Origin: an uncultured Methanosarcinales archaeon
Lineage (GTDB): Archaea; Nanobdellota; Nanobdellia; Woesearchaeales; CAZYIM01
Assembly (NCBI GenBank): GCA_964647565.1
Contig: CAZYIM010000007.1
Span: 20,732 to 84,731, forward strand
Direction: 5' to 3'
Length of the DNA stretch: 64,000 nucleotides
Part shown: in pieces, positions 21,698-50,473 of the stretch
How positions within the stretch are numbered: position 1 is the stretch's first letter
Layout: each line of letters begins with the position of its first letter
Position numbers and translations under genes: made by a program
The notes under the pieces: model-generated
What the model was told of the DNA's origin: nothing
The model's input: only the letters and a program-made list of their open reading frames with translations
The model's database searches: none

Positions 21698-21851
21698 AAT
21701 CCAGCCATTCATGGCGGCCAGACGGTCGTGCTTTGCACGCCCTGTAGGGGGTGTCTGTAGCACTTAGAAAAGCTTCATTTTTCTGGTGTCCCAGAAAGCT
21801 TTGTTTTCTAAGGAGAACAACCCACCCTCCTATCTGCGCCATGTCTGGATT
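21698..21851 (-). repeat. Intergenic fold-back element, copy 1 (conserved termini shared with 50377-50473)
   Basis: AATCCAG/CTGGATT and CATGGCG/CGCCATG terminal stems. Internal hairpins CGTGC-ttt-GCACG, CCCT-gt-AGGG, CTTAGAAAA...TTTTCTAAG and TTTCTGG-tgtc-CCAGAAA. Confidence 0.75.
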
Positions 21852-21906
21852 TCAAACTAATAGCCACACATTAAAAAAGAAATAATCTATCTCCATACCC
21901 TACTAC

Positions 21907-24900
21907 TTACTTAAACAGCTTCTTGATCTGCTTCTTGGACCAGCCCTTGGCCTTCAAAGCCTTGCTGATGTCTTTCTTAGAATATCCCTTGTCAAGTTGA
22001 TGCGCTACGAACTTCTCCAGCTCCTTCCTCTTAGCATCTGTCAAACCGACTTTAGCCTCTTTCTTGGCGTCTTTCTTAGTCTCTTTCTTAGTCTCTTTCT
22101 TCTTTTCTATCTTCTTCTCTTCTTTCTTATGTTTTTTCTTGCCTTTCTTTTCTGCTTTGTCAGCCTTATCAGGAGGAGGAGCCTTTTTGACATCCTTAGC
22201 CTCTGCTTTCTTGAGTTTCTTGGCAGATGTATGCAGAATGTCATCCACAACCTTAGCTTTCCATCCTTTGGCCACCAAAACATCTCTTATATGGGCGTGG
22301 TCGTGACCTTTCTCCATCTGGTGCTCAATAAAGGATTCAAGCTGTTTAATCTTGTTGTGAGGCATATGCACATTATGCTCAATTAACTCTTTCTCATCAA
22401 TCTTGAACTTCTTTTTATTCTGCCTAGCAGTAGCTAAGATCATCCACCATCCTACGATCAGCATGACCAATAATAGCACAAGCCATGGCCATAGCTCCTT
22501 GATCTTCTTGATAAAGACAGGAGGTACTGGCGGTTCAATTACATCATCACTTGGTCCACATAGGGAAGGCATGCCTGTACAACGCCAACCTGCCTCAATT
22601 GCGCATGCATCTGAGCAGCCATCTCCAGTCACCAAGTTGCCATCATCGCACTCTTCTCCTTCGCTGAGTATACCATCTCCGCAAACCAATAATGGAGCCA
22701 CTACTTCTTTGGTCTTGAGGCCGATTGCATAGTAGCTCAAGGCTTCTGAAGTTGCCATATAGTAGTAGAATGTATCATCTTCATCTACTAATGTAGTTGG
22801 CAATATATTCCATTTATTATCCTCAAACCTATAGAGCACTACATCTCCAGGTTCTGCTGCATATGAGCTCACCCAGACCTTTGCAACCTTGAAATATATC
22901 TTGGCAGATGAGATCTGGTCATCATCAAGGTTATCTTTTGTGATCTCAAGGTATTTGTAAGCCTTGTTAGCTTCAACATCAACTGGCGAAGCATCAAGCA
23001 GTGTGACAGTGATCTTGACATTTCTGGCCACCTTCTCGAAGACCACATCAATCTTGCTCACTGCCTTATTAGGATCAGTGACATCAAGGCTCTTGGTCTC
23101 TCCAGCCCTGACCAGGGTCCATACGTCTGGATCCGTGGCAGCACTACTTCCGCCACCACCTACAGTATCAGGTTCAATATATATACAAGCCCTGTTGTTG
23201 CCGCCGCCATAAACAGCACCGCAGCTGTTGGCATCTGTCCATCCAGTACAGCTTTGTATTCCATTTGATTGACAAGTATTCCATCCATCACAGGACCATG
23301 AAGGCGTACATGTTGAGTTAGTCTGGCTAAGAGCTGTATGGTTCAGACCCTCAACTACAAACTTGTTGATATCAGCATCATAGTTACAGATGTACTGTCC
23401 GAAATATGTTGCGCCGTCGCAAGGTATTATCATTTCTTCAGTTCCATTACATAGGGAAGATATCTCGCTGACAGAGGCAACCGGCTTATCCTTGACACAG
23501 ACCTTCTGCTTAGATGCGTCGATCCTGGTTATCCTTACTGTCTTGGTCTCTGACTGTCCAGTCAGGTTGATACCTGTTATCACAACCACAGACACACCTT
23601 CTCCTGTATCTGGGTCAACTACGATCTCTTCGTTGATTGTGACATTTGAAAGGTCCAGTTTGGTTGTATTTGCGAAAGTGAAGTTGAACTCAACAATTGG
23701 AACAGCCTCAGTCTGGTTAGTGGTCTCATTGATGACATTGGCCATGAACTCTATCTTTTTCTCACCAGCAAACTCCTGGCTTGTGTTGGTTGAGTTCTCA
23801 ACCCTGAATGTCAGGTTATCGATATTGGTGTCCACAAAGCTGACATTACCTAAGAGGAAGTCAACAGATTCGTTGATCGGATCATTATCAAAGTCAGCTC
23901 CCTGGTCTTCGTCGCAAGCATCTCCAATTGTATCTAGATCAGTATCTGCCTGTCCAGCATTGGCCACAAACTTACAGTTGTCAGCATAATCTGAGACACC
24001 GTCGCCGTCAGAGTCCCTGACATCAGTCGCAGTTAGGTTCCAGGTCTGGGTTGTAGTGTCAATACCATCAGTTACCTCAGCAATGATCGTGTAGGTTCCA
24101 GCAGATAGTGAGTCTGGCACCATGTTGAACCAGCCTCCTGTGCTGTTATAGGCAGTTGCATCTTCTCCCTTCCTTACAAACCACTGTGCCTGGGCAGTAT
24201 TGTCGCCCTGCGCATCCGTAAAGGTTACACTGTAGTTGATGGTCTGGTCTTCTCTTATTGTTGTTGCCAGATCCTGAGTTGCAGCGGCTGCACCAACCTT
24301 GCTTGAGAAGTTGGTGATGACCGGAGCAGCATTGGTGTTGTTGATGAACGCATTGAAGGTCTCGCTGTCCCAGCTATTGCCGTCTGTTACATTGATTATG
24401 ACATTGTTATGCCAGCCTATGGTCTCGCCGGAAGTGATCCTGACAGTTGCGCTTGCAACTGCATCGTTAGTTACAGTTAAGTTAGCCAGAGTACTAGCGC
24501 TCTGTACAGCAAATGTAAGGTTGGCGTCCTCTTCATCAACTGCGCTGACTGTGTAGGCATTGAGTGCAGTGTTGATGCCTGTCAGGCCGCCTATTGGATT
24601 AAGTACCGGTGCATCATTGACTGGATTGATGGTCAAGGCAAAGACATCGCTGTCAACACCGCCTCTTCCGTCGTATACACTCACTCTTATATTATAGGTG
24701 CCGTTCTGGTTGTTCACAGGTGTGAAGTTAATCACTCCCTGGCCATTAACAGTTGTGATCGTAAATAGTGTGCTATTGGTTCCAAAGGTCAATGGATCTC
24801 CATTGCCATCTGTTGCATTTGCAATGTGCACAAAGTTAGTATCCTCAGTTGCAGTCCTGTCTGCCACAGTTCCAATCACAGGAGCTACGTTGGCAGGTGT

Positions 24901-26073
24901 TGCATTCAAGGTGAAGACAGCATCGCTGTCATCCAAGGCCATAAAGCCGTTGTTGTCTGTTGCATACACCCTGACTTCTGCATCAGTTGCATTGACATTT
25001 GGTATGGTCCATGCATATGTGCCATCATTGCTCTCATTCTGAGCAACCAATACCCAGCCAGTGCCATTGTAGAAGCGTATTATAATAGAGTCAGCTAATA
25101 CGCCGCTTGGATCCGTAGCAGTCCAGAGGATATTCTGAGTTGAGTTGAAGACCCAGTGCTCTCCACCGTTTGGTGAGATCACTGCGACAGTAGGTCCTGA
25201 ATTATCAATAGTAATATTCTCATTGGTTGATGATGCATTGCTGCCATCAGATGTAAAGGCAACTGCTCTTATATAATAGGTGCCATCAGCAATTCCTGCA
25301 GAGTTGAATGTATAGCTACTGTTGACAACAGTGTCAGTTCCAATGGTTGCCCAGCTCACATTGTCTGTTGAATACTGGAAGGTCACATTGATGACTGATG
25401 CGCCAGCAGTGTAGTTAGCTTCATAGTTGCCAAAGACAGTCTCATCATCTGCAGGCCTGGTTAACACAATGAACACAGATCTTGCCACATCAAAACTTGA
25501 TGAGCTTTCTGTCTTATATTGCCTGTGTACTCCGTTTCCAAATGCCTCTGCATAGAAATCAGCATTATAGTCGCCATTTATTGGTTCAGAAGAATTGAAG
25601 TTCCATACGATTGTAAATTTCAGTTCATCAAGGACAGCAGTTTCATATCCATATCCGTATCCTGTTCCAAAACTGGTATTCTGATATATATAGGGGCCTG
25701 TTCCATCGCTTGAATATCCATAGCCCCAACTTAGGCCTGAGCTGCCCATTGGAACATTGACTGGTGTGATTACAAGGTTCTCACAGCCAGAGATGACTGT
25801 GCCATTAAAATAGAATGTGCAGGTCTTGTTGACAGGACCCACGATCTCAAGAGTCAAATTATTGACAGGCACCCTCTCACCATTTTCTATATTCATAGTG
25901 ACATTCATGGTCAGAGAAGTGTCAGATGGTGTGACGCTTGAAGTGGAAAGATCTATAGTCAAGACAATGGCTTTTACAGGTCCAGAAATTAGAAGAAGGG
26001 TTATTACCAATAGAGTCACTGCAAGACTGATAATGCTTTTCTTGTTGATTATATGATGTTTTCTATCACTCAA
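21907..26073 (-). CDS. Membrane-anchored surface protein (1388 aa) with cadherin-like/Ig repeats, thrombospondin type 3 repeat, PGF-pre-PGF domain, DUF4215-like repeat, TM helix and cytoplasmic tail
   Basis: TTG start with GGTGA RBS. N(V/D/A)APV repeats, [35 protein letters not shown], and [14 protein letters not shown]...[35 protein letters not shown] and a Lys-rich tail with two helical modules. Confidence 0.9.
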
Positions 26074-26162
26074 AAACTGCTCACCTACTTACTGAGGACA
26101 CACCCCTTTTTTGACTAAATCTCTTTTTTTAACAGATCTGTTTTCCACTATTAAACTATAAA

Positions 26163-26180
26163 TATTTTATAAACTTTTCG
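26163..26180 (-). promoter_or_regulatory. BRE/TATA promoter
   Basis: Minus strand CGAAAAG-TTTATAAAATA upstream of the 1388-aa gene. Confidence 0.6.
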
Positions 26181-26229
26181 ATTTGGAAAAAATCTGTTTT
26201 TTACCAAAAAGTGAAGAACGATTGTCACA

Positions 26230-26769
26230 TTAATCAGTGACGTTGCTTTTCTGCCTGTTTTCATCTGTAATCATATAAGACAACATCCCAATTAAAAGGG
26301 CCGAAACAACACCAATTAAATATGCCAGCCAGCCCAATTGTATCACCTTCAAAAAGATGAAAGCACCGCCGACAACACTGACCAGGACCAGCTGCCAAAG
26401 CTTGACTTTTTCATCCATCTTTTTTCCTGGCAACAGGATGACTAGAAAACCAAAGACCAGCACAGCGATCAGCAGATAGTTAAGGTTGAAGAACTCGACT
26501 GGTTTGAACTCATTGACAAAAAGCAGCACTATATATAAGAAAAGCAGGATCTTGAAGATGGTCTCTGAAATCGATGAAATGATTCTCAATCCTTTTTTTC
26601 TGCTCAGAAAAAATAACAGCAACACCAGAGTTACCATGGCCGAACCATAGACGATCCAACCATAATAGCCTACCTTGACAAACACTGTAAGAAAAGAGAG
26701 AAAAACCAAGACTAAGAATGCCACTAGAAGAATCGAGATAATCTGTCTTCTTGTTTTTCTGTAAAGCAT
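26230..26769 (-). CDS. Hypothetical multi-pass membrane protein (179 aa, ~6 TM)
   Basis: Six hydrophobic segments, TATA ~25 nt upstream. Confidence 0.8.
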   Translation of the reverse strand: MLYRKTRRQIISILLVAFLVLVFLSFLTVFVKVGYYGWIVYGSAMVTLVLLLFFLSRKKGLRIISSISETIFKILLFLYIVLLFVNEFKPVEFFNLNYLLIAVLVFGFLVILLPGKKMDEKVKLWQLVLVSVVGGAFIFLKVIQLGWLAYLIGVVSALLIGMLSYMITDENRQKSNVTD

Positions 26770-26802
26770 TGTAAAGATTAAGACACAGAGAGTATAAAAA
26801 CT

Positions 26803-27702
26803 TTACTCCTCTCCTTCGTCAAAAAAGTCAACCACCTTTGAAAAGAAACCCTTGCCTTTCTGTTTTTTAGGCTCTGACGACTCCTCGCTGGGCTCCTCAA
26901 CTTCCTTTATCTCAAAATCCTCTTCTGTAAAAGATTTCCTGGGCTTTTTCTTTTCAAGCTTTTCAAGCTCATCCTCAAAAGATTCTGTTCTTCGGGAAAG
27001 GAAATCAATCTTCTTGGACTCTTTTTCCTTGAACTTGGAGATGTTATCGATCTGCTCCTGCATCTGCTTAAGGACCTGCTTGATCTTCTTGTAGTCAAGC
27101 TCTGCCTGGTCATAGCTGACAATGGATCCTACTTTCTCATGCATCTGTCGCAGCTCTTCCTTAAGCTCTTTTCTTGAGACCATCTGGTTTGTCTTGTCCC
27201 TTATTTCGAGGACATCTTCCTTAAAGCCGTCAGATCCCATTGACTTGATTGATGAATGAAGTTTCCTGATGACAGCGTTCTGCTGGTCAAGCTTCTTGTA
27301 AAGAGCAGCCACTTCGTGATTGAGGGCATCAATTTCAGCAGTCGGATCCTTCTTATCCTTGATCGCCTTCTTAAGGGTCTTGACAGCGGCTACGAAATCC
27401 TCTTGCTCGACCACCACCTCTTGCTTAGGCACTTCATTGAGTTTTGACTTGAGATAAAAAAGTGACTTCTCTGTAGCCTTGTTCGTTTCCTTTAGTTCAA
27501 GTATGGCATCAGAGAATACTTTCTTGACCTCGTTGACCTCATGCAACATTGCCTCTTCCTTGACAATGGTGTGCTCCTTGAGCTTAAGGAACTTATCCTT
27601 GATCATGTCAATGGTCTCATTCGTATCAGCGACATGTTTCTTTACCTTCGTAAAAGAAGTCTCTAGAACTTGGTTCAGCTCTGTAAAAGATCTTATCATC
27701 AT
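26803..27702 (-). CDS. Coiled-coil protein (299 aa) with C-terminal amphipathic KGFFSKVVDFF motif
   Basis: K/E/L-rich heptad pattern throughout, GGGGTGG RBS, BRE/TATA at ~27773-27789. Confidence 0.82.
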   Translation of the reverse strand: MMIRSFTELNQVLETSFTKVKKHVADTNETIDMIKDKFLKLKEHTIVKEEAMLHEVNEVKKVFSDAILELKETNKATEKSLFYLKSKLNEVPKQEVVVEQEDFVAAVKTLKKAIKDKKDPTAEIDALNHEVAALYKKLDQQNAVIRKLHSSIKSMGSDGFKEDVLEIRDKTNQMVSRKELKEELRQMHEKVGSIVSYDQAELDYKKIKQVLKQMQEQIDNISKFKEKESKKIDFLSRRTESFEDELEKLEKKKPRKSFTEEDFEIKEVEEPSEESSEPKKQKGKGFFSKVVDFFDEGEE

Positions 27703-27818
27703 ATAACAACCACCCCTATAGTATTTTAGTTTAACATCTCTTTATTTAATATCCACTCTAAAATAAGAACAGATATATAAGTTTTTCGGAAAGTATAAAG
27801 AAAACATAAAAAAATAGT

Positions 27819-29711
27819 TCAGTTGTCAGAACCTATTAAAACCTGCACCGGCATAAATACCTGCTGAAAACCAGTCCCTTTCTTGACAGTAAGCCTCAGA
27901 ATATATAAGCCATCCTTATCGATGTTAATCACACCTAATACACCTTTACGGACTTGCGTCCCCGAGCCAATTTGTTTCCAACAATCATTACACGGATAAG
28001 ATGCTTTTCCTATTTCAAGGATATAGCTATCACCTGTTGCACTGCCCCTAACTTCAGTTCCAAAAGAGACCACATCCCACATAAGAGAGTATATCGGATC
28101 TACATGGTACATTCTCGGACTTGAAATCCAAGCTACAGCTCCGCCAACCATCGAATCACTTATGCCAGCCAATGCTTTATGAACATTTACCCTGCCAGTT
28201 CCAAAATAAAAATAATCTCCGGGTCTGTCAAACATAGAGAAGTCTGTGCCAGGTATATCGACGCCTTGCTTGATAATATCTTTTAATTGATTAGGGTTAA
28301 GATTGGAGTTCTTTGACAGGATAAGACCAGCTAACCCTGCAACATACGGCGCAGCCATGCTTGTACCGCTGTAAGTATCATATCCATCAGGAACTGTCGA
28401 GATTATCTTACCGCCAGGTGCAGCAACATCTACCCAGAATCCGAAATTAGAAAAACCTGAAGGTTGGTTATCTTCATCAAAAGATGCAACTGAAAAAACA
28501 TCGCTAAATGCAGCAGGATATGATTCTCTGATAAACCCTGCGTTACCTGCAGCAGCCACCAGAAAGACGCCATTGTCATTTGCATAATCCAAGGTTTCTT
28601 CAAGAATAGATGAACGATATTCACCACCAAAACTCATAGATAGTATATCAACGCTATTATTTGTTGCATAGTAGATACTTCTAATAACTGCGTCTGAGAC
28701 AACTAGTCCGACCTCATAATAACCATCGGAGATGAATCTTTCTATGACACCTCCTGCCCTAAGGGGCATAATCTTACAACCAGGACAGACCCCTGCAATA
28801 CCCCTTGCATTATTTGTTGTTGCTGCAGCAATTCCTGCACAATGAGTTCCATGTCCATAATAATCCAAGGGCTCATTATCCCAGCCCATATAATCCTCCC
28901 CATCAATAAATCTATAAGGATCTGAGTTATATTTAGCAGGATCAAGATCAACAAAATCATAACCTGTACCAGGAGGACACCCCTGGGTACAATCTGAAAG
29001 CATATTATCAAATAAATCCTCGTGAAGATAGTTTATACCTGTATCAATTACACCAATAACAACATGAGATTTTCCACGCTCAATATCCCATCCTTTTTCT
29101 GCATCAGTCGCCCTATGAGCCCATTGCTGATCGTACAGCCCATCATTCGGCTTGAAGAAAGTGTAGTATATATAGTTAGGTTCGACATGCTCCACATTGG
29201 GATCCTGCTTAAGATCTTTTATCGCAGTCTCAACAGACCTCGCATCTTTAAGCTCGAGTTTGTATGTATGACGTAGACTTGGATCTTTAACATTATCAGC
29301 CAATCCCTTGAAATCTACCACTCTATGCTTTTGCACGAGAACATTGACTGATTCCACACTGCTTAAGACATCAAGACCATAATTTACTGCCTGACCCGAC
29401 ACCCCCTGGCTGCCGACCAGTTTCTTCAATCCGGGATCATTCTTAAATTTGACAAGCACCTCTCCTGGCATATAAGCAGGCAGTCTTTTTGCAACAGACA
29501 GCTTGGGCCCCCACACACCAGCACTAATACCATCAAGATTTAAACTCCTTCCATAATTCCTCAAAGCCCCACTTGATTGATCTCTTGCAAAACCCGCAAG
29601 GGATTCAGTTTCCTGTCCATCTAATCTGTTGTTCAAGAACAGGAGCGTTAATCCAGACATGACCACAATTGCAATCAGAGAGTATATAAACGTAGAAGGC
29701 GGAGTTTTCAT
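27819..29711 (-). CDS. S8 subtilisin-family serine protease with N-terminal membrane anchor/signal and prodomain
   Basis: Catalytic motifs VIDTG, HGTHCAG, AAAGN and SGTSMAAP; prodomain PGEVLVKFK...VEHVEPNY. Confidence 0.95.
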   Translation of the reverse strand: MKTPPSTFIYSLIAIVVMSGLTLLFLNNRLDGQETESLAGFARDQSSGALRNYGRSLNLDGISAGVWGPKLSVAKRLPAYMPGEVLVKFKNDPGLKKLVGSQGVSGQAVNYGLDVLSSVESVNVLVQKHRVVDFKGLADNVKDPSLRHTYKLELKDARSVETAIKDLKQDPNVEHVEPNYIYYTFFKPNDGLYDQQWAHRATDAEKGWDIERGKSHVVIGVIDTGINYLHEDLFDNMLSDCTQGCPPGTGYDFVDLDPAKYNSDPYRFIDGEDYMGWDNEPLDYYGHGTHCAGIAAATTNNARGIAGVCPGCKIMPLRAGGVIERFISDGYYEVGLVVSDAVIRSIYYATNNSVDILSMSFGGEYRSSILEETLDYANDNGVFLVAAAGNAGFIRESYPAAFSDVFSVASFDEDNQPSGFSNFGFWVDVAAPGGKIISTVPDGYDTYSGTSMAAPYVAGLAGLILSKNSNLNPNQLKDIIKQGVDIPGTDFSMFDRPGDYFYFGTGRVNVHKALAGISDSMVGGAVAWISSPRMYHVDPIYSLMWDVVSFGTEVRGSATGDSYILEIGKASYPCNDCWKQIGSGTQVRKGVLGVINIDKDGLYILRLTVKKGTGFQQVFMPVQVLIGSDN

Positions 29712-29777
29712 CTTAAAGCTAACTCAGAAAATAGATATTTAAAAACTTTTTTATACGATCCAGATATACACAAATCA

Positions 29778-30140: not shown

Positions 30141-30161
30141 GAATAAAAAAATAGTGATCGC

Positions 30162-30590: not shown

Positions 30591-30680
30591 ATATATCTAA
30601 AAATGATTTTAATTAATAAAAGTTATCATAATTAAATTAACCTACAATCATGTTCTTTTGTTTGTCAAGAATTAAAGACT

Positions 30681-34713: not shown

Positions 34714-35622
34714 ATGAGAAGAAAACTGATCCAACACGGAATGTCATCACTGACCATAACCCTGCCAAGAAAATGGATCAAAAACAACAATCTGAAGAAG
34801 AGTGATGAGATTGAGTTGGATGAATCGAATGGAAAACTGATTATTGCCACAAAAAAACACTATGAATCCAAAAAAATCGCAGTAGATATCTCTAATGCAA
34901 AGCCCATGATAAGAAAAATAATAGGGGCCACCTTCAAATCAGGCTATGACGAAGTCAATATCAGATTCAGCTCGTTCAGTGAATTAAAGGCAGTCCAGGA
35001 CCTGATGAGGGAACAATTTTCAGGCTTTGAGATAATCAAACAGACTAAGAACAGCATCTTAATAAAAAATGTATCTCAATCAAATTTTGGAGAGTTCAAT
35101 AATATGCTTAGAAGATTCTTCTATATCATGAATCACACAGCATCTGAAGTCTCTGGCGCAATAGGCAAAAACGATCTTGCATGGCTGAAAAACACAACCC
35201 TGATGAAGATTGAATCAGATAAATGTGCCGATTACTGCAGAAGGGCCATCAATATGGGCTTTGAGACAGAATTTAAGAGAATAGGCCCATTATATACTAT
35301 CATTGAACAGCTTGAAAAGGTTGTGGACAGGTATAGGGACTTGGCAGACCATATTGCCTCAAAAAATATTAAAGCCAGCAATAAAATCAAATCTTTCATA
35401 AAAAAACTAGCTGACTTTCAAGAATTATTCCGCAATCTGTTTTACAAATATGAACAAAATAAGATGGTGGAATTTGGCAAAAAGAAAGTGAGCCTACAAA
35501 AGGAACTAGACAAAATATCTGAAAACTGCTCAAAAAAAGAGATGAAAATCATCACCCTCCTGGACAGGATCCTGAATCTAATTTTCGATCTAAACGGTCC
35601 GTTGATCTCAATCAAAATTTAA
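34714..35622 (+). CDS. AbrB/MazE-domain + PhoU-like phosphate-uptake regulator
   Basis: N-terminal RRKLIQHG.SSLTITLP.KW..NNL..DE, and GYDEV.I and EQLEKVVD helical PhoU-type motifs. Confidence 0.88.
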   Translation: MRRKLIQHGMSSLTITLPRKWIKNNNLKKSDEIELDESNGKLIIATKKHYESKKIAVDISNAKPMIRKIIGATFKSGYDEVNIRFSSFSELKAVQDLMREQFSGFEIIKQTKNSILIKNVSQSNFGEFNNMLRRFFYIMNHTASEVSGAIGKNDLAWLKNTTLMKIESDKCADYCRRAINMGFETEFKRIGPLYTIIEQLEKVVDRYRDLADHIASKNIKASNKIKSFIKKLADFQELFRNLFYKYEQNKMVEFGKKKVSLQKELDKISENCSKKEMKIITLLDRILNLIFDLNGPLISIKI

Positions 35623-35758
35623 ATTATGTTCAAAAAATCATAAAACAATAGAAAGGATTTGAGGCTTTCATTATATAAAAACCGAAAGCTTTATATATTA
35701 AAGGCAACTAATATATAAAAAAGTATATTAATAATAAAAAAATAAAAGAGGTGTAAAT

Positions 35759-36154
35759 ATGAAAATAAATAACATATTAATGATTTTGGCTGTAATAGGT
35801 CTTTTATTTGCAGCAGGATGCGCATCTGGAAAGGCTGGTGATGATACTATCACTATGACTGGAACTAATAATACAAACACAACCAACGGAACAATAATAA
35901 TAACACAACCAACAACACTAAACGAAACAAACACAACCAACAACGAAACAAACGGAACAATAATAATAACACCAACAACAACACTAAACGAAACAAACAC
36001 AACCAACAACGAAACAAACGGAACAATAATAATAACACCAACAACAACACTAAACGACACCAATCAAACCAATAAGAGTGTAATACCACCAAGACCGCCT
36101 AAATACGAGAACGATACAAACACGACGGTTAATGGAACTAATTACACAAGTTAA
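35759..36154 (+). CDS. Asn/Thr-rich repetitive lipoprotein (131 aa)
   Basis: GAGGTG RBS, BRE/TATA at 35682-35697, lipobox FAAGC, 22-aa tandem repeats and a T-run terminator after the stop. Confidence 0.85.
   Translation: MKINNILMILAVIGLLFAAGCASGKAGDDTITMTGTNNTNTTNGTIIITQPTTLNETNTTNNETNGTIIITPTTTLNETNTTNNETNGTIIITPTTTLNDTNQTNKSVIPPRPPKYENDTNTTVNGTNYTS
35885..36057 (+). repeat. Coding tandem repeat, 66-bp unit x ~2.6
   Basis: Units start at 35885, 35951 and 36017 (AACGGAACAATAATAATAACA...). Confidence 0.95.
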
Positions 36155-40508: not shown

Positions 40509-40576
40509 AATTATTTATTTTAAAAAATCTTCGGCTTTAAGACATCGATAATTCATCACTATAAGATGATGAATAA

Positions 40577-40592
40577 CCGAAAGCTTTTTAAA
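40577..40592 (+). promoter_or_regulatory. BRE/TATA promoter of the DEAD-box helicase gene
   Basis: CCGAAAGC-TTTTTAAA ~150 nt upstream of the ATG. Confidence 0.55.
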
Positions 40593-42104: not shown

Positions 42105-42162
42105 AGTAATAATACTCAGCAATTTAATTTATTGTGTCGGCTCTCGATGTTTTTACTAGAAG

Positions 42163-43140: not shown

Positions 43141-43227
43141 ATATTTAATAATAAAATTGATATTATTAAAATTTTTCTAATACCCCTATCAAAAACTTTT
43201 TAAATTCTATTTATAAAGACATTATTC

Positions 43228-44346
43228 ATGAAGCTGTATTTCAGTGAATCATTGAAGCTTTTGTTCAAGACATGGCCATTTTGGGCTATCAAGATCCTGG
43301 TCTATTTTGTGATGACTCTGATCTTTTTTCTTGTCGCTGCAGTCTTCATCTACATTGCAAGTCTTTTCTCAGGACCGTTCGGATTCCTGATCCTGATCAT
43401 AGGCCTTTTGATAATGTGGGGCATATTCAAACTCGTACGGCATTATGTACTCTACCTGATCAAGGCAGGCCATGTTGCTGTGCTTGGAGAACTGGTGCAG
43501 AAGGGAAGCATCTCAGGCAGCGAAGGCATGGTCGGCTATGGCTTTAAGATGGTCAAGTCCAAGTTTGTGACCGCCTCTGCATTCTTTGTGGTGGACAGGA
43601 TCATTGCAGCCATTGTACACGGCATATCAAACTTCATCAGAAGGATTGGTAATTGGGTTCCAATACCTGCTGTAAGGACCATCTTCAACCTGATCGCGCA
43701 CATCGTCTCAGTCTTCCTGAACTATATTGATGAAGCTGTCTTGAGCTACCTATTCACTCATCCAGAAAAGAATGCCTGGAAAGGCGCAAGAGACGGACTC
43801 GTCCTTTATTTCAAATGCTGGAAATCAATGCTTGCAACCAGTGTGATATTAGTATTGATCAACTATGCGATTGCTATAGGCATATTCTTTGGGCTTTATG
43901 TCCTGACAGCACCGCTCGTATTACTGTTACCCTGGGCCATATTCCACGAGATCCCTTATTTCATCGCACTCATAATCGCGCTTTTCATCAAGGTCGCTTT
44001 CTTAAACCAGTGGACCCTGGTCTGGATGGTGACCACTTACCAAGAATCCATAAAAGGCAAGGAGCCTGACTCTGCTGCAATGGAAGAGCTTGAAAGGCTT
44101 GTTCCAAAGTTCAGGGAGATAACATCCAAGGTCGGCAAGGAGACAACCACAACATATTCCATGCAGACACCAGCACAATCAGTCGAAATCCCACTTTCAC
44201 CACATATCAAGCAGCAGGTAGACAAGCTATTGCCCTATGTCAAGGACCAAAAGACCAAGGGCTACTCTGACGCTCAGATCAAAGCTGCCCTGCTAAAGGC
44301 CAACTGGCCAGAGAATGTCGTAAATCACGCTGTCAAAAATCCGTGA
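43228..44346 (+). CDS. Multi-pass membrane protein (372 aa) with C-terminal helical module
   Basis: Several TM helices, YLIKAGHVAV and YIDEAVL motifs, C-terminal LLPYVKDQKTKGYSDAQIKAALLKANW. Confidence 0.85.
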   Translation: MKLYFSESLKLLFKTWPFWAIKILVYFVMTLIFFLVAAVFIYIASLFSGPFGFLILIIGLLIMWGIFKLVRHYVLYLIKAGHVAVLGELVQKGSISGSEGMVGYGFKMVKSKFVTASAFFVVDRIIAAIVHGISNFIRRIGNWVPIPAVRTIFNLIAHIVSVFLNYIDEAVLSYLFTHPEKNAWKGARDGLVLYFKCWKSMLATSVILVLINYAIAIGIFFGLYVLTAPLVLLLPWAIFHEIPYFIALIIALFIKVAFLNQWTLVWMVTTYQESIKGKEPDSAAMEELERLVPKFREITSKVGKETTTTYSMQTPAQSVEIPLSPHIKQQVDKLLPYVKDQKTKGYSDAQIKAALLKANWPENVVNHAVKNP

Positions 44347-44507
44347 CCACCCTAATGTAATACGCTAGGGGCATGGCCCCTTTCGATCGGGTCACTCCCT
44401 ATTAAACACATGTTATAACGTTTCCACTCCACCAATCAAATAGACTGGTGGTATAAAATGTGTCAAAAAAGCTTAAACTAAAAAGAATTCAAAAAGAGGT
44501 GTTGTTA

Positions 44508-45959
44508 ATGAAAAAGATAATATTGTTTTTTCTATTGATGATTCTATGCATCGGAATGGTATCTGCTGCAGGAGACTCATTTGAGACTGCAGAGACCATA
44601 ACTCCAGGGACAATTGAAGGAAGCCTTCTGGAAAGGGATTCTGTCGACTTCTATCAAATCAATCTCAATCCAGGACAACGTTTGACTGTTAAAAGCACCT
44701 TTGAAAGTGATGAAGATAGTGTTTGGGCAGAAATGTATCTCTATAGTTCAGACCGCCAAGAGTTAAAAAGTGCGTGGGATTTTGAAACTGCACCTTTAGT
44801 ACTAGAATCCCACTATGTTGCGAATGAGGACCTGGAGGGCATATTCTATATTCGACTTAAGCTGGGCGCATCATATCCTGTAAATAAATATGCGCTAGAA
44901 GTAAATGTCGAAGAAAACGCAGACATGGGCAGCGGAGATGCCTCAGCAACTTTTGATGACGCAATGCCTATAACTAACGGTAGCTTTCCGAACTGCTGCT
45001 GGCTGGTCGCAGGCAAGAGTGGCAAGGATGAAAAGGATTTCTATAAGATGGACCTGAAGACTAATGACTTCATCAAGGTCAAATTGACGCCCGGAACTGA
45101 CGAAGTACAGACAGCACAGCTCAACCTAGCCATATATGATTCTTCAAGAACCAAGAAAGTAAGCGAAGAGGCAGACAACGAAGGCCAGATAATAACAGTT
45201 GAATACCATAATATCGGCGACCCGCAGACAGTATATATAGCTGCATTAAGGGATACCTACTACACTAAAGGAGGACCTTATGGCTTGGACGTAATACTCG
45301 AAAACAGGGCGCCTGCTGTCTGCGTAGCAGAGCAAAAGAAGTGCTTCGGAGATGACCTGAAGATCTGCTCTGATGACCTGACTGATTGGGACACCTTAAA
45401 GACCTGCGATGATGGATGTGTACCTGCAAGCTGGGGAGATGCAGCCAGGTGCGCAGATAAAGGAGAATCAGTAACAACCACTGCAGATATTGAAAAGACC
45501 AACAAGGCAGCAGCCGGAGCAGCAGCAGGATTTTTAGGAGTAATGGCGCTCATGGCAATCCTACCTATAATTATCGGCATCTATCTGTTGATCTCTTTGA
45601 TATGCGCAATAATCTGTATTGTCAGCATTGCGTCTGCAGGCAATGACGGTGGCTGGAAAACCCTATGGATTTTGATTGTGATCTTCCTGGGATTGATTGG
45701 CTGCATCATCTACTGGATAGCAGGCAAGAAAAAAAGGATTGACAAGAACAGCGCCATGGCAGGCATGTCAACAGCCACAACCACACAGCAGCCGCAACAG
45801 AGCGTTTCTCAACCGACACAACCAGCAGCGGACCCACAGGTTGCACAGCTCAAGAACTATGTGTCATCAGCAAGAGCTGCCGGCAAATCCAACGATCAGA
45901 TAAAAACAGAACTAAGGAACGCTGGATGGCCTGACGACAAGATCAATCAGGCACTATAA
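44508..45959 (+). CDS. Secreted/membrane protein: two PPC-like beta domains, Cys-rich linker, TM helices, PLDc_N-like hairpin, C-terminal helical module
   Basis: ATG at 44508 after a GAGGTG RBS. Signal peptide, D.(F)..A..I...G...D.DFY repeats, KTLWILIVIFLGLIGCIIYW and a terminal LKNYV...GW. Confidence 0.85.
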   Translation: MKKIILFFLLMILCIGMVSAAGDSFETAETITPGTIEGSLLERDSVDFYQINLNPGQRLTVKSTFESDEDSVWAEMYLYSSDRQELKSAWDFETAPLVLESHYVANEDLEGIFYIRLKLGASYPVNKYALEVNVEENADMGSGDASATFDDAMPITNGSFPNCCWLVAGKSGKDEKDFYKMDLKTNDFIKVKLTPGTDEVQTAQLNLAIYDSSRTKKVSEEADNEGQIITVEYHNIGDPQTVYIAALRDTYYTKGGPYGLDVILENRAPAVCVAEQKKCFGDDLKICSDDLTDWDTLKTCDDGCVPASWGDAARCADKGESVTTTADIEKTNKAAAGAAAGFLGVMALMAILPIIIGIYLLISLICAIICIVSIASAGNDGGWKTLWILIVIFLGLIGCIIYWIAGKKKRIDKNSAMAGMSTATTTQQPQQSVSQPTQPAADPQVAQLKNYVSSARAAGKSNDQIKTELRNAGWPDDKINQAL

Positions 45960-46306
45960 TGAGGAATAATTTATTTTTTTTTAATTTAATTTTTATTTTA
46001 ATAGCAGTATTTCTCTGGATAATATTCTATTTATATAACTATAAAGAGAAAAAGCCAAGGAAAAAACCATCCCATCCACCACCGCCACAGCAGGCAGATG
46101 TACATGCTTCAGAGGGCTACCAGGTAAAACCCAACGCGCCACCTTTCAAGAAACCACCTGAACCTCCTGCTCCAAAACCCAAAGAACAGATAAAACCTGC
46201 AGGCCCAAAACCCAAAACACTTCCAATGAAAGTGCCTTCTAAGAAAACAAAACTTAAGTCACATCTATATCACCCGCCACCAAAAGTATTAAAACATAAA
46301 TCTTGA
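45959..46306 (+). CDS. Small membrane-anchored Pro/Lys-rich protein (115 aa)
   Basis: TAATG stop/start overlap with the upstream gene; one TM then a low-complexity tail. Confidence 0.62.
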   Translation: MRNNLFFFNLIFILIAVFLWIIFYLYNYKEKKPRKKPSHPPPPQQADVHASEGYQVKPNAPPFKKPPEPPAPKPKEQIKPAGPKPKTLPMKVPSKKTKLKSHLYHPPPKVLKHKS

Positions 46307-46320
46307 ATTTTAGAAACAAA

Positions 46321-46367
46321 AGAAATGCAAAGCATTTCTAGGCTTCGAAAAAAAATCCTTTTTCGAA
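46321..46367. repeat. Two adjacent intergenic hairpins
   Basis: AGAAATGC-aaa-GCATTTCT and TTCGAAAAA-aaatcc-TTTTTCGAA, just upstream of a TTTATATAA box. Confidence 0.55.
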
Positions 46368-46415
46368 ATCTTTATATAATCTATATAAAAAATATACTTC
46401 AGAAGGGGTGATTTA

Positions 46416-47039
46416 ATGGTCAATCAAAAAGCAGTTGATTATATCAAACAATACAAGGATACTTATTCTATCGATGCGTTGAAGTCTAATCTTACTAATC
46501 AAGGCTATCCGCCCGCAGAGGTCGAAGAGGCAGCAACCATTGCAATGCAGGCAGAACCTGCACCAGCCGCTGCACCGCCGCAAGCAGAACCTGTAGCAAC
46601 TCCTCAATTCGATCAGCAGCAGGCGCCTCCACAAGCAGACCAACAGGCAGCACCACAATTCGTCGAACCCGCTCCACAAACCGCAGGCGCAGAGATGCAG
46701 CCAATGCCAACTGCCCAACCATCTGATAACAGCAACCAGAACAGGACCTTGGCAGCATTAGGATATCCGATCGGCATAATTGCACTAATATTGATCTTCA
46801 TTGCCAAGGATGATCACTGGGCCAAGACCCATGCATTCGCAGGACTGTTCTGGAACCTTGCATATGTCGTCATCTCTGTTTTCATATCTTTCGTCACATT
46901 TTTCCTGCCTTTCTCACTTTCATGGTTGCTATGGATTGCATTCCTCGGACTATCAATATATTTCGCATACGAGGTCTACAATGGCAAGGATGTTGAGATA
47001 CCTTTAATATCCAAACTTGCAAGGGACGCAGCCAAGTAA
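46416..47039 (+). CDS. DUF4870-like membrane protein with N-terminal helical module and Pro/Gln/Ala linker
   Basis: GGGGTGA RBS; LAALGY.I.IIAL...K.HA..GL...G.D.EIPLI. Confidence 0.85.
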   Translation: MVNQKAVDYIKQYKDTYSIDALKSNLTNQGYPPAEVEEAATIAMQAEPAPAAAPPQAEPVATPQFDQQQAPPQADQQAAPQFVEPAPQTAGAEMQPMPTAQPSDNSNQNRTLAALGYPIGIIALILIFIAKDDHWAKTHAFAGLFWNLAYVVISVFISFVTFFLPFSLSWLLWIAFLGLSIYFAYEVYNGKDVEIPLISKLARDAAK

Positions 47040-47066
47040 TTTTTTTCTTTTCTTTATTTATTAAAA

Positions 47067-47654
47067 ATGGTCAACAAAACAATTGTAAACTATTTGAACC
47101 AAAATAGACCTGAGTATTCTATTGACTCGCTCAAGCAGGCCCTATTAAAAAAGGGCTATCCCAAGAAAGATGTGGAAGAGGCCATAGACCATGTCACTAA
47201 GGACTCCCCCGCACCAAAACCGCCAAAATTCTCACCAACCCCTCCTCCTTATACACCGCCCGCGCCAAAATATGAAGGGAACCAGGAATCTATGTCGCAT
47301 TCGTTGGTAGGACTCTCTTACTTGATATGGGTGATTGCCATCGTTGTTGCAGTAACCGCCAAAAAGAGTGACAAGTTTGCAAGATACCATGGTTTCCAGG
47401 CATTGTTCTATGGCTTGATCTATGGCTGGATTTTTGGATTCGTCCTAGGAATTTTTATAGTAGTAAGCGGCATATTGACCATCATACCAATAATTGGCAT
47501 AATCATATTTCTTTTTGCATTGATTGTCATGATTGCTGTTTGTGGAGGCATCACAGTCTTTTCCATAATCTTTACTGTCAAGGCAAGCCAGGGTAAGATG
47601 TTCAAGATCCCCTTAGCCACCAACATAATGAAATCAATGATCAAGGATCTTTGA
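47067..47654 (+). CDS. DUF4870-like membrane protein, tandem paralog of 46416-47039
   Basis: Same MVN...Y...YSID.LK..L...GYP...VEEA start; RYHGFQAL..KASQG..FKIP. Confidence 0.85.
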   Translation: MVNKTIVNYLNQNRPEYSIDSLKQALLKKGYPKKDVEEAIDHVTKDSPAPKPPKFSPTPPPYTPPAPKYEGNQESMSHSLVGLSYLIWVIAIVVAVTAKKSDKFARYHGFQALFYGLIYGWIFGFVLGIFIVVSGILTIIPIIGIIIFLFALIVMIAVCGGITVFSIIFTVKASQGKMFKIPLATNIMKSMIKDL

Positions 47655-47664
47655 TAAGAACTAA

Positions 47665-48618
47665 CTATCTCTTTATCCAATCATTATTCAGATACCAACT
47701 ATAGGTATCTCTCAAACCGTCTTCTAGAGAAATATCAGTCTTAAACCCAAAATCATTTTTTGCAACAGAAGTATCCTGGCCATCTATGACCCAGTTGTTC
47801 GAAGCAAGCTTCCTTTTCTGAAGGTTCAGGATCACATCCCTGCCTCTCAAAGACAAATAAGAGCCATAGACAGCTCCAAGCAAGACCAAAAATCTCGGTA
47901 CCTTAATGCCTCTGGCCTTCTTGCCCATCACCTCTTCGATCTTATCATATAGTATATTCAAGGAGACAGGATCATCATTGCAAAGATCATATGTATTATT
48001 ATCAGTCACCAGATTCATACCAGCATCTATGACTCCTCCCACAAGATCATCTACATGTATGATCATATGTTTTTTATTCTCACTGCCGTCGTAGAGTTTC
48101 AGGCCTTTGTTTATCATGTTGAAGATGCGGAAGTAATCCTTATCCTTGGGTCCGTACACTCCACCTGTCCGAACAATAGTATAAGGTACTTGATCACCAT
48201 AAAACTTCACCACATCTTCAGCAACCTGCTTGCTCCAGCCATAGTGTTCGATAGGCTGGCTTGCTGCAAGAGTTGAAAGCAATACAAATCGCTTTAAAGA
48301 AATCTTTGAATTAGAGATAACATCAAGCATTGCATTGGCAGGAACAACATTAGAGTCATAGAACTGCTCAAGGTTGGCACCCTTGGTCCGGGCCGCAAGG
48401 TGATAGACATAGTTCACATCCTTGCATGCAAGCTCCAGTTCAGAAGTATCATCATAGCCATCTATATAGTGTCTCTCAACATCAAGACCCTCGAGGTATT
48501 TCTCATCGCTCTTAGTCCATCTTAACAGACACCTAACCTTGATATCCTTAGCTAACAGCTTCTCAACCAGATGGCTTCCGATAAAGCCTGTTGAACCTGT
48601 AACCAATGCTCGTGTCAT
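47665..48618 (-). CDS. NAD-dependent epimerase/dehydratase (extended SDR)
   Basis: TGSTGFIG, HLAA, YGWSK (YxxxK) and VYGP. Confidence 0.93.
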   Translation of the reverse strand: MTRALVTGSTGFIGSHLVEKLLAKDIKVRCLLRWTKSDEKYLEGLDVERHYIDGYDDTSELELACKDVNYVYHLAARTKGANLEQFYDSNVVPANAMLDVISNSKISLKRFVLLSTLAASQPIEHYGWSKQVAEDVVKFYGDQVPYTIVRTGGVYGPKDKDYFRIFNMINKGLKLYDGSENKKHMIIHVDDLVGGVIDAGMNLVTDNNTYDLCNDDPVSLNILYDKIEEVMGKKARGIKVPRFLVLLGAVYGSYLSLRGRDVILNLQKRKLASNNWVIDGQDTSVAKNDFGFKTDISLEDGLRDTYSWYLNNDWIKR

Positions 48619-48619
48619 C

Positions 48620-50359
48620 TTAATCCTTAGCAGTGCTCTCGCTGTCCCACATATGCTTTCTGTTTGCCTTCCTGGCTATCAAGAAATTGCCCATGACCAG
48701 GAAATCAATTCCAGTTCCCATCATACACCTATAGGCTTCCAAGGGAGTGTTTACAATCGGCTCACCCCTTATATTGAATGATGTATTGATCAATACAGGA
48801 ACACCCGAGAGCTTCTCAAACTCCTTTATCAAGTCATAATACAAAGAATTGGTCTCTCTTTTCAAGACCTGCAACCTGCCCGAGCCGTCGACATGGGTCA
48901 CAGCAGGAAGTAACTTTTGCTTGGCTGCCCTTATAGGATAGACTGTCAGCATGAACTCCGACGGGATAGGCAATGGCTTGTCAGCGACAAAATAATCATG
49001 AACATCCTCAGCTGTTATAACAGGTGCAAATGGCCTGAACTGTTCCCTATGCTTAACTTTCTTGTTTAAGATATCTTTCATAAAAGGATTGCAGGGATTG
49101 GACAGGATGCTCCTGTTGCCAAGGGCTCTTGGACCATATTCAAACCGGCCCTGGAACCAGCCGACAACATTGTTGTCATTGATCAGCCTCGCCATCTTCT
49201 TCAATAGTTCCTTTCTGCTCTTGAACTCATAGAAACTGATCTGGTTCTTCTCAAGAAACTCATTAATATCCTCTCTGGAATATCCCTTTCCAAGGAACGC
49301 ATCATCCATAACAAACCTTTTCTTCCTGCCCAGTATAATATTGTAGGCATAGCACGCAGCACCAACACAACCGCCTCCGTCGCCTGCAGCAGGTAGGGCA
49401 TAAAGATGCTTGAAAGGAGTCTTGCTTAGTATCTTCCCATTGACTACACTGTTCAGGGCAACACCACCTGCAATACAGAGGTTCTTTGAGCGGGTTATCC
49501 TATGAGCCTCTCTTGCTAGATTTAAAATCACTTCTTCTGTCAGCTTCTGCAAAGAGGCTGCAATGTCAGCATGCCTCTTGCTCATCTTCTGTCCTCTTCT
49601 CCTTGCAGGTCCAAAGGCCTTGATGAACTTCCTATTAGGCATTCTCAATTTGTAATGGAAAGCAAAATAGCTCATATCCAATCTAAAGCTGCCGTCATTT
49701 TTCATATCAACAATCTTCCTGAACTTATCGTAATATACAGGCTGGCCGTAGGGTGCAAAGCCCATGACCTTGTACTCATCATTGTTGACCTTAAAGCCAA
49801 GGTAAGCAGTAACTGCGCTATAAAGCAAACCAAGGGAATGGGGGAAATGAAGCTCCTTGATAATCTTGATGTCATGGTTGGCCTGGCAGATGGTTGTTGT
49901 CGCCCACTCACCAACCCCGTCCAGGGTCAGAACAGCCGCCCTCTTGAAAGGTGATGTCAAAAAACTGGATGCTGCATGAGCCATATGATGCTCAACAAAG
50001 AAAATATCGCCCTTGTACTTCAATTTTTGCTTGACCTGGCTGTGCACTCTCAACTTCTCTGTCAGCCAGGAAGGCACTGCTTTGTAAAACGACCAGAAAG
50101 ACAAGGGAAACGTCTGCAGGTACTGGCTCATCAATCGGTCAAACTTGATCATCGGCTTCTCATAATATGCAACATAGTCAACGTCATCTATAGAGATGCC
50201 AGCCTGCTCCAGACAAAACAGGGCAGCCTTCTTTGGAAATCCAGTATCATGCTTCTTGCGGCTAAACCTCTCTTCTTCTGCAGCTGCAGCTATCTTGCCG
50301 TTCTTCAACAGGCACGCCGCTGAATCATGATAAAAACAAGATATCCCAAGTATGTACAT
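48620..50359 (-). CDS. O-carbamoyltransferase (NodU/CmcH/SxtI family)
   Basis: YHDSAA, EEERFSR.KH, EHHMAHAAS, EYKVMG, GGVALN, GPRALGNRS, FRPFAP, THVDGSGRLQ and NTSFN. Confidence 0.96.
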   Translation of the reverse strand: MYILGISCFYHDSAACLLKNGKIAAAAEEERFSRKKHDTGFPKKAALFCLEQAGISIDDVDYVAYYEKPMIKFDRLMSQYLQTFPLSFWSFYKAVPSWLTEKLRVHSQVKQKLKYKGDIFFVEHHMAHAASSFLTSPFKRAAVLTLDGVGEWATTTICQANHDIKIIKELHFPHSLGLLYSAVTAYLGFKVNNDEYKVMGFAPYGQPVYYDKFRKIVDMKNDGSFRLDMSYFAFHYKLRMPNRKFIKAFGPARRRGQKMSKRHADIAASLQKLTEEVILNLAREAHRITRSKNLCIAGGVALNSVVNGKILSKTPFKHLYALPAAGDGGGCVGAACYAYNIILGRKKRFVMDDAFLGKGYSREDINEFLEKNQISFYEFKSRKELLKKMARLINDNNVVGWFQGRFEYGPRALGNRSILSNPCNPFMKDILNKKVKHREQFRPFAPVITAEDVHDYFVADKPLPIPSEFMLTVYPIRAAKQKLLPAVTHVDGSGRLQVLKRETNSLYYDLIKEFEKLSGVPVLINTSFNIRGEPIVNTPLEAYRCMMGTGIDFLVMGNFLIARKANRKHMWDSESTAKD

Positions 50360-50376
50360 TTTCCTTCCCCTTTGTT

Positions 50377-50473
50377 AAAACCAGACATGGCGCTGGCGAG
50401 GGGGAGGGACGCTCCTCCGGAAGCCCCCGAGCAAGGCTCGGAGAGCCGACAGCCGCCATGTGTGTCTGGTTTT
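50377..50473 (+). repeat. Intergenic GC-rich fold-back element, copy 2
   Basis: AAAACCAGA-CATGGCG ... CGCCATG-tgtg-TCTGGTTTT terminal stem; inner hairpins GGAGG-gacgct-CCTCC and CCGAGC-aag-GCTCGG. Confidence 0.8.

Follow-up and report, generated by a model that had tools for sequence, protein, structure and literature searches.

What kind of element keeps its two ends nearly constant while everything between them differs, and is it read as DNA or as RNA? This question is raised by two intergenic segments, el1 and el2, which lie 28.5 kb apart and in opposite orientation in the 64-kb stretch of archaeal DNA analysed here (the window). A sequence-only reading had described them as a dispersed family of fold-back elements with shared arms, and had proposed that they are mobile elements, recombination elements or signals acting at the level of RNA. 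Both elements were recovered at the positions that it gave, with exact arms. Their features are as follows.

21698..21851, minus strand: el1, the complete fold-back element (154 nt with its AAU/AUU outer pairs)
21836..21848, minus strand: el1 5′ arm CCAGACATGGCGC (exact match)
21701..21718, minus strand: el1 3′ arm GCCGCCATGAATGGCTGG, which carries both bulges (exact pattern match and predicted pairing)
21724..21831, minus strand: el1 variable interior, with a long, branched hairpin on the 5′ side and a short one on the 3′ side (folding)
21871..21878, minus strand: TTTTTTAA box ending 22 nt upstream of the CCAG of el1, a possible archaeal TATA element (reading and spacing)
50377..50473, plus strand: el2, the complete fold-back element (97 nt with its AAAA/UUUU outer pairs)
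50381..50393, plus strand: el2 5′ arm CCAGACATGGCGC (exact match)
50452..50469, plus strand: el2 3′ arm GCCGCCATGTGTGTCTGG (exact pattern match)
50399..50446, plus strand: el2 variable interior, two GC-rich hairpins (predicted structure)

Two copies in the window and one in a Woesearchaeota genome

The 5′ arm CCAGACATGGCGC has two exact matches in the 64-kb window, those of el1 and el2, and the 3′ arm pattern GCCGCCATGNNTGNCTGG was also found twice (21701-21718 on the minus strand and 50452-50469 on the plus strand). Pairs of the two arms at a distance of 58-118 nt numbered two in the window, and none of 100 shuffles contained one. Relaxed arm searches of the window gave extra matches at chance level only; at up to three mismatches CCAGACATGGCGC had 15 matches, of which the 13 beyond el1 and el2 compare with an expectation of 10.0 ± 3.4. 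A covariance model, R1, was also run over the whole window with filters off. It scored el1 at 96 bits and el2 at 88 bits on the plus strand; a third copy was not found, the next score being 15 bits for the antisense (minus) strand of el2. The GC content of the elements is 0.49-0.63, versus 0.26-0.34 in the adjoining intergenic DNA.

A search for the arms beyond the window did reveal a further member. One exact-arm scan of 185,579 species genomes, with the arms 58-118 nt apart and members with variant arms or other lengths outside its reach, gave 44 two-arm matches. Chance accounts for 43 of these, which come from GC-rich bacteria and do not have the CTGG continuation; the sole true member, el3 (locus L010), lies on a Candidatus Woesearchaeota contig from a MAG. 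When R1 was applied to the 44 fetched loci, el3 scored 126 bits on the sense strand versus 24 bits on the antisense strand, and the best bacterial locus scored 19 bits. One copy with exact arms is therefore present in a Woesearchaeota representative genome, and no true one in the other species genomes scanned. The scan of the species collection did not retrieve el1 and el2 themselves, and the carbamoyltransferase encoded near el2 has a best non-self relative that is only 67% identical, which together indicate that the window genome and the el3 genome belong to different organisms. Nine of the carbamoyltransferase relatives have an organism name; all nine are from DPANN archaea, six of them from Woesearchaeota, which, like the Woesearchaeota origin of el3, bears out the link to DPANN and makes the window genome Woesearchaeota-like. 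No match was obtained by blastn of el1 against phage records or of el3 against plasmid records. The elements are thus conserved across genomes, although the term dispersed family receives modest support only, one member being found in another genome and no third copy in the window.

Architecture and folding of the elements

The three elements share one architecture. Their 13-nt 5′ arms are identical, their 3′ arms agree at 15-16 of 18 positions, and the same bulges are present on the 3′ strand. From the outside inwards, each has an outer helix rich in A and U, whose sequence changes between copies while pairing is kept, then the invariant CCAGACAUGGCG of the 5′ strand, two bulges on the 3′ strand (one of 4-5 nt and one of 1-2 nt), a second and partly covarying helix, and a three-way junction with two hairpins whose sequences are unrelated between copies. 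RNAalifold independently gives the same closing stem of 21 pairs. In el2 the lower loop consists solely of four bulged nucleotides on the 3′ strand (UGUG), and the CCAGACA/UGUCUGG helix below it is perfect; for el1 the minimum free energy (MFE) structure draws a 1×5 internal loop, which is equivalent to a 4-nt bulge (UGAA) plus an A·G mismatch. Above CAUGGCG/CGCCAUG, the 3′ strand has an unpaired C in el2 and GC in el1. With this refinement for el1, the bulge asymmetry that had been proposed for both window copies is borne out. In agreement with such an asymmetry, R1 is strongly strand-specific (88 versus 15 bits for el2 and 126 versus 24 bits for el3). Beyond the conserved core the outer helix is formed by AAU/AUU in el1, AAAA/UUUU in el2 and CGGAAAAAU/AUUUUUCCG in el3, so that the outermost paired bases vary between copies and are still complementary, with up to 9 extra bp in el3.

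That the helix above the bulges covaries had also been claimed. It does contain one compensatory pair (A-U to U-A), and a U-A to A-U swap is found next to CCAG. However, 15 of the 21 closing-stem pairs are invariant, and the covariation measures were reached by 36-55 of 500 shuffles, which for three sequences gives no statistical support. Since the family has three members, the covariation is suggestive only.

As RNA, el1 has an MFE of -62.1 kcal/mol (z -4.92) and el2 one of -50.2 kcal/mol (z -4.36), and in neither case were any of 200 shuffles as good; el3 folds with a z of -8.3. Single-stranded DNA folding was equally significant (z -5.7 to -7.4), and folding energy is therefore unable to separate RNA from DNA. 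With DNA parameters, the MFE structure of el3 loses the conserved inner helix. The sense strand of el3, which uses three G·U pairs, folds 10 kcal/mol better than its complement; the difference between sense and antisense is small for el1 (-62.1 versus -59.8) and negligible for el2 (-50.2 versus -49.8). A window-wide MFE scan placed the elements among the top structured segments without their standing alone there, and is hence uninformative.

All three interiors consist of two hairpins, one 5′ and one 3′, separated by a spacer. Taken alone, the interiors of el3 (z -3.9) and el1 (z -3.46) are significantly stable, while the interior of el2 folds no better than shuffles (z -1.12, 30 of 200 shuffles as good). 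The local-alignment scores of the three pairs of interiors were reached by 710, 466 and 235 of 1000 shuffles; none is significant, which upholds the view that the interiors are unrelated.

Neighbouring genes and transcription

The elements are all intergenic and occur in both orientations relative to the adjacent genes. They start or end 55 nt (el1), 45 nt (el3) and 23 nt (el2) past the stop codon of an adjacent gene, which for el2 is on the opposite strand. A run of five Us is present 3′ of el2 and el3. The hairpin has an A-run on one side and a T-run on the other, a symmetric arrangement that places a U-run after it on either strand. The TATA-like box of el1 has the same spacing as the TTATA-type boxes upstream of window genes, and TTTTTTAA may, judging from this, be the promoter element of el1. 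In the case of el2, the element is antisense to both neighbouring genes, its own strand lacks an upstream TATA box of the consensus type, and no promoter box for the downstream carbamoyltransferase was found between el2 and the start codon of that gene. These observations indicate that the reverse complement of el2 is probably what is mainly transcribed.

No HUH enzyme, transposase or integrase was found when the 52 open reading frames (ORFs) of the window were scanned. A partner-protein candidate common to the three loci was not found either, and there is no homology of the 124-aa protein beside el1 and the 125-aa protein beside el2.

Several other roles were considered and rejected. AUGs in both arms open ORFs of 11-48 codons, but these are conserved only at the residues encoded by the arms, and the variable arm positions sit at codon positions 1 and 2, both of which disfavour a coding role. 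For antisense targeting by the interiors, the window contains no match of at least 13 nt, and a 12-mer at 29650 corresponds to chance expectation. A link of the type seen in diversity-generating retroelements (DGRs) to the upstream surface protein would require features that are missing: no template/variable repeat pair was found, nor a reverse transcriptase in the scanned ORFs. Finally, the elements do not appear to be the borders of a 28.7-kb island, the genes between them being ordinary housekeeping genes or genes of unknown function, without an integrase.

Known families and competing explanations

The elements are absent from described families, in line with the earlier failure to assign them to a named one. 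Rfam 15 gave no gathering-threshold match in the 64-kb window, and at E ≤ 10 around el1, el2 and el3 it gave only two unrelated lncRNA models at 10-11 bits, which is noise; ARAGORN detected no tRNA or tmRNA genes in the window. The element is not described in the accessible portions of the literature on Woesearchaeota/DPANN non-coding RNAs, archaeal attC sites, MITEs and RNA motifs. Archaeal bulge-helix-bulge (BHB) stems and K-turn platforms are similar in that a helix with short bulges is formed by distant segments that pair around a variable payload. However, a script scan for the BHB geometry (3-nt/4-bp/3-nt, bulges on opposite strands) found none involving the arms, and the loop does not have the tandem G·A/A·G of a K-turn (L7Ae): only the first G·A is possible, and in the predicted structures position 2b is G or U and 2n pairs canonically (G with C). 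The BHB scan gave two matches in el2; they arise from pairing between its upstream flank and its interior, and the other elements do not have them.

Could the elements act as DNA? One such explanation is a folded single-stranded site whose extrahelical bases are read by a tyrosine recombinase, as in attC, or by an HUH enzyme (IS200/IS605, RAYT-like). Like attC sites, the elements are imperfect hairpins with conserved paired ends, a centre that is free in length and sequence, and extrahelical bases on one strand (here the 4-5-nt and 1-2-nt bulges of the 3′ strand); their size is attC-like and their folding as single-stranded DNA highly significant. The likeness ends there. The boxes that define attC sites, R′′/R′ = RYYYAAC ... 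GTTRRRY at the base of the hairpin, are absent from the termini of all three elements on either strand (a lone match lies beyond the helix of el3, 29 nt upstream of the element), and so is the GTAG of REP elements. The two window copies are single, 28.5 kb apart and in opposite orientation instead of arrayed as cassettes, their interiors are branched three-way junctions, the 52 window ORFs include no integrase and no protein of the Y1_Tnp or a related family (IS200/IS605 TnpA, RAYT), and the conserved inner helix of el3 is lost with DNA parameters. Nanoarchaeota/DPANN MAGs are reported to contain integrons and attC sites (PMC9668308); these archaeal attCs were found with the bacterial attC model, which implies that they are canonical in form. 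We therefore regard a recombination site of this kind as very improbable. Less so, though still unlikely, is a non-autonomous MITE-like mobile DNA, in which the arms would be imperfect terminal inverted repeats for a transposase encoded elsewhere in the genome and the interiors filler. As expected for such DNA, the copies in one genome have unrelated interiors between termini that are conserved, imperfect inverted repeats, and the copies are intergenic in both orientations; short inverted repeats near gene ends that can fold in transcripts are typical of MITE, Correia, REP and BIME elements, and the two size classes (154 and 97 nt) are reminiscent of Correia-type elements. The AT on both sides of CCAG...CTGG in el1 and el3 may be a 2-bp target duplication, but el2 has AA...TT and hence no duplication, and such a palindromic dinucleotide is indistinguishable from an extension of the helix. 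In transposons, conservation is normally highest at the outermost bases of the ends; here, the outermost pairs differ between copies yet remain complementary, which is the opposite. Furthermore, the interiors are non-homologous and hold stable hairpins, a transposase or RAYT was not found among the 52 ORFs, and copy number is very low, with no third copy in 64 kb and a single true exact-arm copy among 185,579 species genomes.

The elements could also be REP-like hairpins of mRNAs that protect 3′ ends, terminate or insulate after genes whichever way they are oriented, and whose conserved stem is the binding site of an abundant nucleic-acid-binding protein. Their location 23-55 nt beyond a stop codon, the symmetric A-run/T-run flanks that place a U-run on either strand, and the equal stability of both strands of el2, which probably lies within an operon transcript, would all agree with this. 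What makes it quite unlikely is that the bulges are always on the same strand (88 versus 15 and 126 versus 24 bits), which a simple orientation-independent hairpin does not need. In addition, copy number is far below that of REP-like families, archaeal termination is not known to need more than oligo-T, and el2 as a terminator would leave the carbamoyltransferase behind it without a transcript. Together, these results support the part of the sequence-only reading that posited a real family with conserved asymmetric bulged termini and unrelated interiors. They do not support its mobile or recombination options, given the low copy number, the varying but complementary flanks, the missing R boxes and GTAG, and the lack of an HUH enzyme, transposase or integrase among the 52 window ORFs. 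Its third option, an RNA-level signal, fits best, though short of proof.

We tentatively favour, at somewhat less than an even chance, the explanation that el1, el2 and el3 are a low-copy structured-RNA family of Woesearchaeota-type DPANN archaea, with the closing helix as a platform for protein recognition or processing. Each element would be transcribed, either from its own promoter or within a neighbouring transcript, and its two ends would pair into a closing helix of 25-30 bp. The sequence and geometry of this helix would be the selected part, namely the invariant CCAGACAUGGCG 5′ strand, the UGNN bulge of the 3′ strand and, five base pairs further in on that strand, the 1-2-nt C/GC bulge. 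The bent bulged helix may then be the recognition site of a dedicated protein, which could be a docking partner or a processing or end-protecting enzyme. The three-way junction would bear two hairpins that are free in sequence as long as they fold, and this variable part might be a copy-specific payload, following the logic of Y RNAs.

Y RNAs, which bind Ro60 and occur in animals and bacteria, combine a terminal stem that is conserved and bulged with loops that vary. The elements resemble them in size (roughly 90-150 nt), in their paired 5′ and 3′ ends that form a long, sequence-conserved stem with bulged nucleotides, in interiors that differ between paralogues of one genome, in low copy number and in the 3′ U-run. 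They differ in that the stem sequence is distinct, both bulges are on the 3′ strand and no Rfam model matches; moreover, TROVE/Ro60 was not found among the 52 window ORFs. We know of no report of Ro60 or a Y RNA in archaea, and the accessible literature gave no pointer to one. That the invariant bulged helix docks a dedicated DPANN protein, the elements being the archaeal counterpart of Y RNAs and scaffolds that tether one protein to variable RNA modules, is a specific form of this idea that we consider decidedly unlikely.

DPANN archaea have tiny genomes with little non-coding DNA, and to our knowledge almost nothing is known about their non-coding RNAs. The elements appear to form a small structured-RNA family that has not been described before, and the present analysis yields a defined motif together with a model, R1, for searches of DPANN MAGs and metatranscriptomes. 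A stem that stays identical across paralogues and genomes while the interior changes points to a specific reader, candidates for which are an RNA-binding protein, a processing enzyme or a recombinase. Identification of this reader would add a new archaeal RNP or processing signal, or else a new hairpin-directed DNA transaction; the docking reading, if true, would provide a scaffold RNP in a lineage without a known RNP of this kind.

Arm pairs in the window and in other genomes

The sequence-only reading proposed a dispersed fold-back family from two intergenic elements with shared arms, and reading both sites confirmed that these elements, el1 and el2, exist as described. The 13-nt 5′ arm (CCAGACATGGCGC) has two exact copies in the 64 kb, at 21836-21848 (minus) and 50381-50393 (plus), and the 3′ arm (GCCGCCATGNNTGNCTGG) also has two copies in the window, both of them exact. 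When up to three mismatches were allowed, 15 matches to the 5′ arm were found in the window versus 10.0 ± 3.4 expected from shuffles; the 13 non-exact matches are at shuffle level. The two arms in the correct order and 58-118 nt apart were found twice in the window and in none of 100 shuffles.

Both arms, exact and with the spacing restricted to 58-118 nt, were then used to scan species-representative genomes, which returned 44 loci. In 43 of these, all in GC-rich bacteria, the match stops before the outer CTGG and the covariance model of the closing stem gives at most 19 bits, and we attribute them to chance. The remaining locus, on a 2.3-kb contig (L010) of Candidatus Woesearchaeota archaeon CG08_land_8_20_14_0_20_47_9, is a full element, el3, whose 5′ arm is identical and whose 3′ arm differs from that of el1 once, at a bulge position. 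As el1 and el2 are absent from the scan results, the genome of the window lies outside that collection and el3 represents an independent genome. The proposed family is extended by a single member, and the window and the exact-arm, length-restricted scan together yield three:

el1: window 21698-21851, minus strand; RNA minimum free energy (MFE) -62.1 kcal/mol, z -4.92
el2: window 50377-50473, plus strand; RNA MFE -50.2 kcal/mol, z -4.36
el3: about 466-588 of L010, minus strand; covariance model 126 bits; RNA MFE -70.4 kcal/mol, z -8.33

For el1 and el2, none of 200 shuffles of each element was as stable. Other candidates in the window were rejected. At 29650-29661 (plus), within a subtilase gene of the opposite strand, 12 nt are identical to the beginning of el1 (AATCCAGACATG); a match of this kind is expected by chance in the window, and no matching 3′ arm accompanies it. 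Two further intergenic hairpins, 62548-62632 and 40519-40592, have 16-nt arms (94% and 81% complementary, respectively); they are AT-richer, and the covariance model gave 9.8 bits for 62551-62629 and listed nothing for 40519-40592.

Common anatomy

The outermost part of all three elements is an A/U-rich helix whose sequence varies per copy while complementarity is kept (AAU/AUU, AAAA/UUUU and CGGAAAAAU/AUUUUUCCG). It is followed inward by CCAG/CUGG, an A opposite G, U or G, CA/UG, a 3′ bulge UGNN, UGGCG/CGCCA, a 3′ bulge C or GC and, above the latter, a second helix of the form C-W-G-R-Y.../...C-W-G. A three-way junction makes up the interior; its two hairpins, one 5′ and one 3′, are separated by a short spacer. 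The asymmetric bulging reported for el1 and el2 was recovered, since in the predicted folds the 3′ strand of the closing stem carries both of the unpaired features. The first is a 4-nt bulge (UGUG) in el2 and appears in the MFE structure of el1 as a 1x5 loop, equivalent to UGAA plus an A.G mismatch; the second, 5 bp further in, is C in el2 and GC in el1.

Unguided RNAalifold recovered the same 21 closing pairs. Fifteen of these are invariant and two have changed in a compensatory way; across the three sequences, 95% of cells are paired. The earlier claim that the next helix covaries holds in part: compensatory changes are present in the closing stem, but the shuffle control on three sequences was non-significant (36-55 of 500). 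The interiors, previously called unrelated, indeed have no detectable sequence similarity among the three; folded alone, those of el1 (z -3.5) and el3 (z -3.9) are significant and that of el2 (z -1.1) is not.

Genomic setting and strand

The distance from stop codon to element is 55 nt for el1, 45 nt for el3 and 23 nt for el2 (opposite strand). Pfam and protein comparison found no features shared among the genes adjoining the three elements. According to Pfam, the window encodes giant surface proteins, DUF1616 and many family-less proteins, a repertoire typical of archaea with small genomes. The giant ORFs, all on the minus strand, are 6785-20881 (4698 aa), 3-4670 (>1556 aa) and 21907-26073 (1388 aa; el1 lies 55 nt past it). 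They probably encode surface proteins; the two that were scanned contain fn3, TSP_3, Big_9, Cadherin_5 and DUF4215 domains. Elsewhere, an A/C-rich unit of 66 nt is repeated in tandem at 35876-36073 (three copies, 83-100% identity), inside the overlapping ORFs 35728-36063 (minus) and 35759-36154 (plus). Small ORFs at 61018-61284 (plus) and 61876-62184 (minus) have weak ParE-toxin-like matches, and a 302-aa protein (34714-35622, plus) has a MazE/AbrB-like N-terminus; these are possible toxin-antitoxin remnants.

The carbamoyltransferase beside el2 (48620-50359) has thousands of relatives. Among the 120 listed, nine are organism-named and all nine are DPANN archaea (six Candidatus Woesearchaeota, one Nanoarchaeota, one Aenigmarchaeota and one 'archaeon'), which upholds the DPANN placement. 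Together with a best non-self identity of 67% among the matches listed, these names indicate a Woesearchaeota-like archaeon with no close sequenced relative. Three relatives are ~340 aa longer (916-922 aa), and PF14528 (LAGLIDADG_3) is present in two of them (P0044 and P0059), suggestive of intein-type insertions in a subset of the DPANN homologues; the enzyme of the window has no such insertion.

A AAAGTTTTTATA-like box ends ~22-30 nt before the start codons of many ORFs (e.g. 26770-26810, 29735-29777 and 54225-54264), and TTATA or TATATA is present at most 70 nt upstream in 20 of the 53 window ORFs. The pattern is suggestive of promoters of the archaeal BRE/TATA type and of mRNAs that for the most part lack leaders.

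Several observations favor a strand-specific, RNA-level reading of the elements. The covariance model scores one strand well above the other (88 versus 15 bits for el2, 126 versus 24 bits for el3); el3 has three G.U pairs and is 10 kcal/mol more stable than its complement; the elements (GC 0.49-0.63) are islands within AT-rich intergenic DNA; a five-U run follows el2 and el3; and a TTTTTTAA box ends 22 nt upstream of the el1 CCAG, the spacing seen between TTATA-type boxes and start codons in this genome. Other observations are neutral or argue against it: the sense/antisense energy gap of el1 is small and el2 has none, folding as ssDNA is equally significant, and el2 is antisense to both neighbor genes, its own strand showing no consensus box. 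The carbamoyltransferase behind el2 has no separate promoter box, which makes it probable that most transcription of el2 yields the complementary strand.

Known systems and interpretation

Rfam returned no family in the window at gathering threshold and, for the three elements at E<=10, nothing beyond two unrelated lncRNA models at 10-11 bits, in line with the earlier failure to assign a named family, and no published description of the element was found in the open-access literature searched. The 64-kb window contains no tRNA or tmRNA genes. The elements do not conform to the BHB motif, the predicted structures rule out a K-turn, and a coding role was rejected as short ORFs starting at arm AUGs are not conserved.

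The mobile or recombination element originally envisaged is not supported by the analysis. That the elements are folded-ssDNA recombination sites appears very improbable: attC identity was rejected as R boxes and arrays are absent and the 52 window ORFs scanned include no integrase. Archaeal attCs reported in DPANN are described as having been detected using a bacterial model (PMC9668308). An REP or IS200/605 end was likewise dismissed, there being no GTAG and, among the same 52 ORFs, no Y1 transposase, and we regard a REP-like mRNA hairpin as unlikely. Slightly less doubtful is a mobile, MITE-like fold-back DNA, which would account for the inverted termini and for a possible AT duplication in two of the three copies; however, the copy number is too low, the interiors are without homology, and the outermost bases vary yet stay paired.

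Y RNAs have the same architecture, a conserved closing helix with a variable payload, although membership of that family itself is excluded. The reading we favor, tentatively, is that el1, el2 and el3 may belong to a low-copy structured-RNA family, in which the closing helix would be the part that is selected and read by a protein and the three-way junction would constitute a variable payload.
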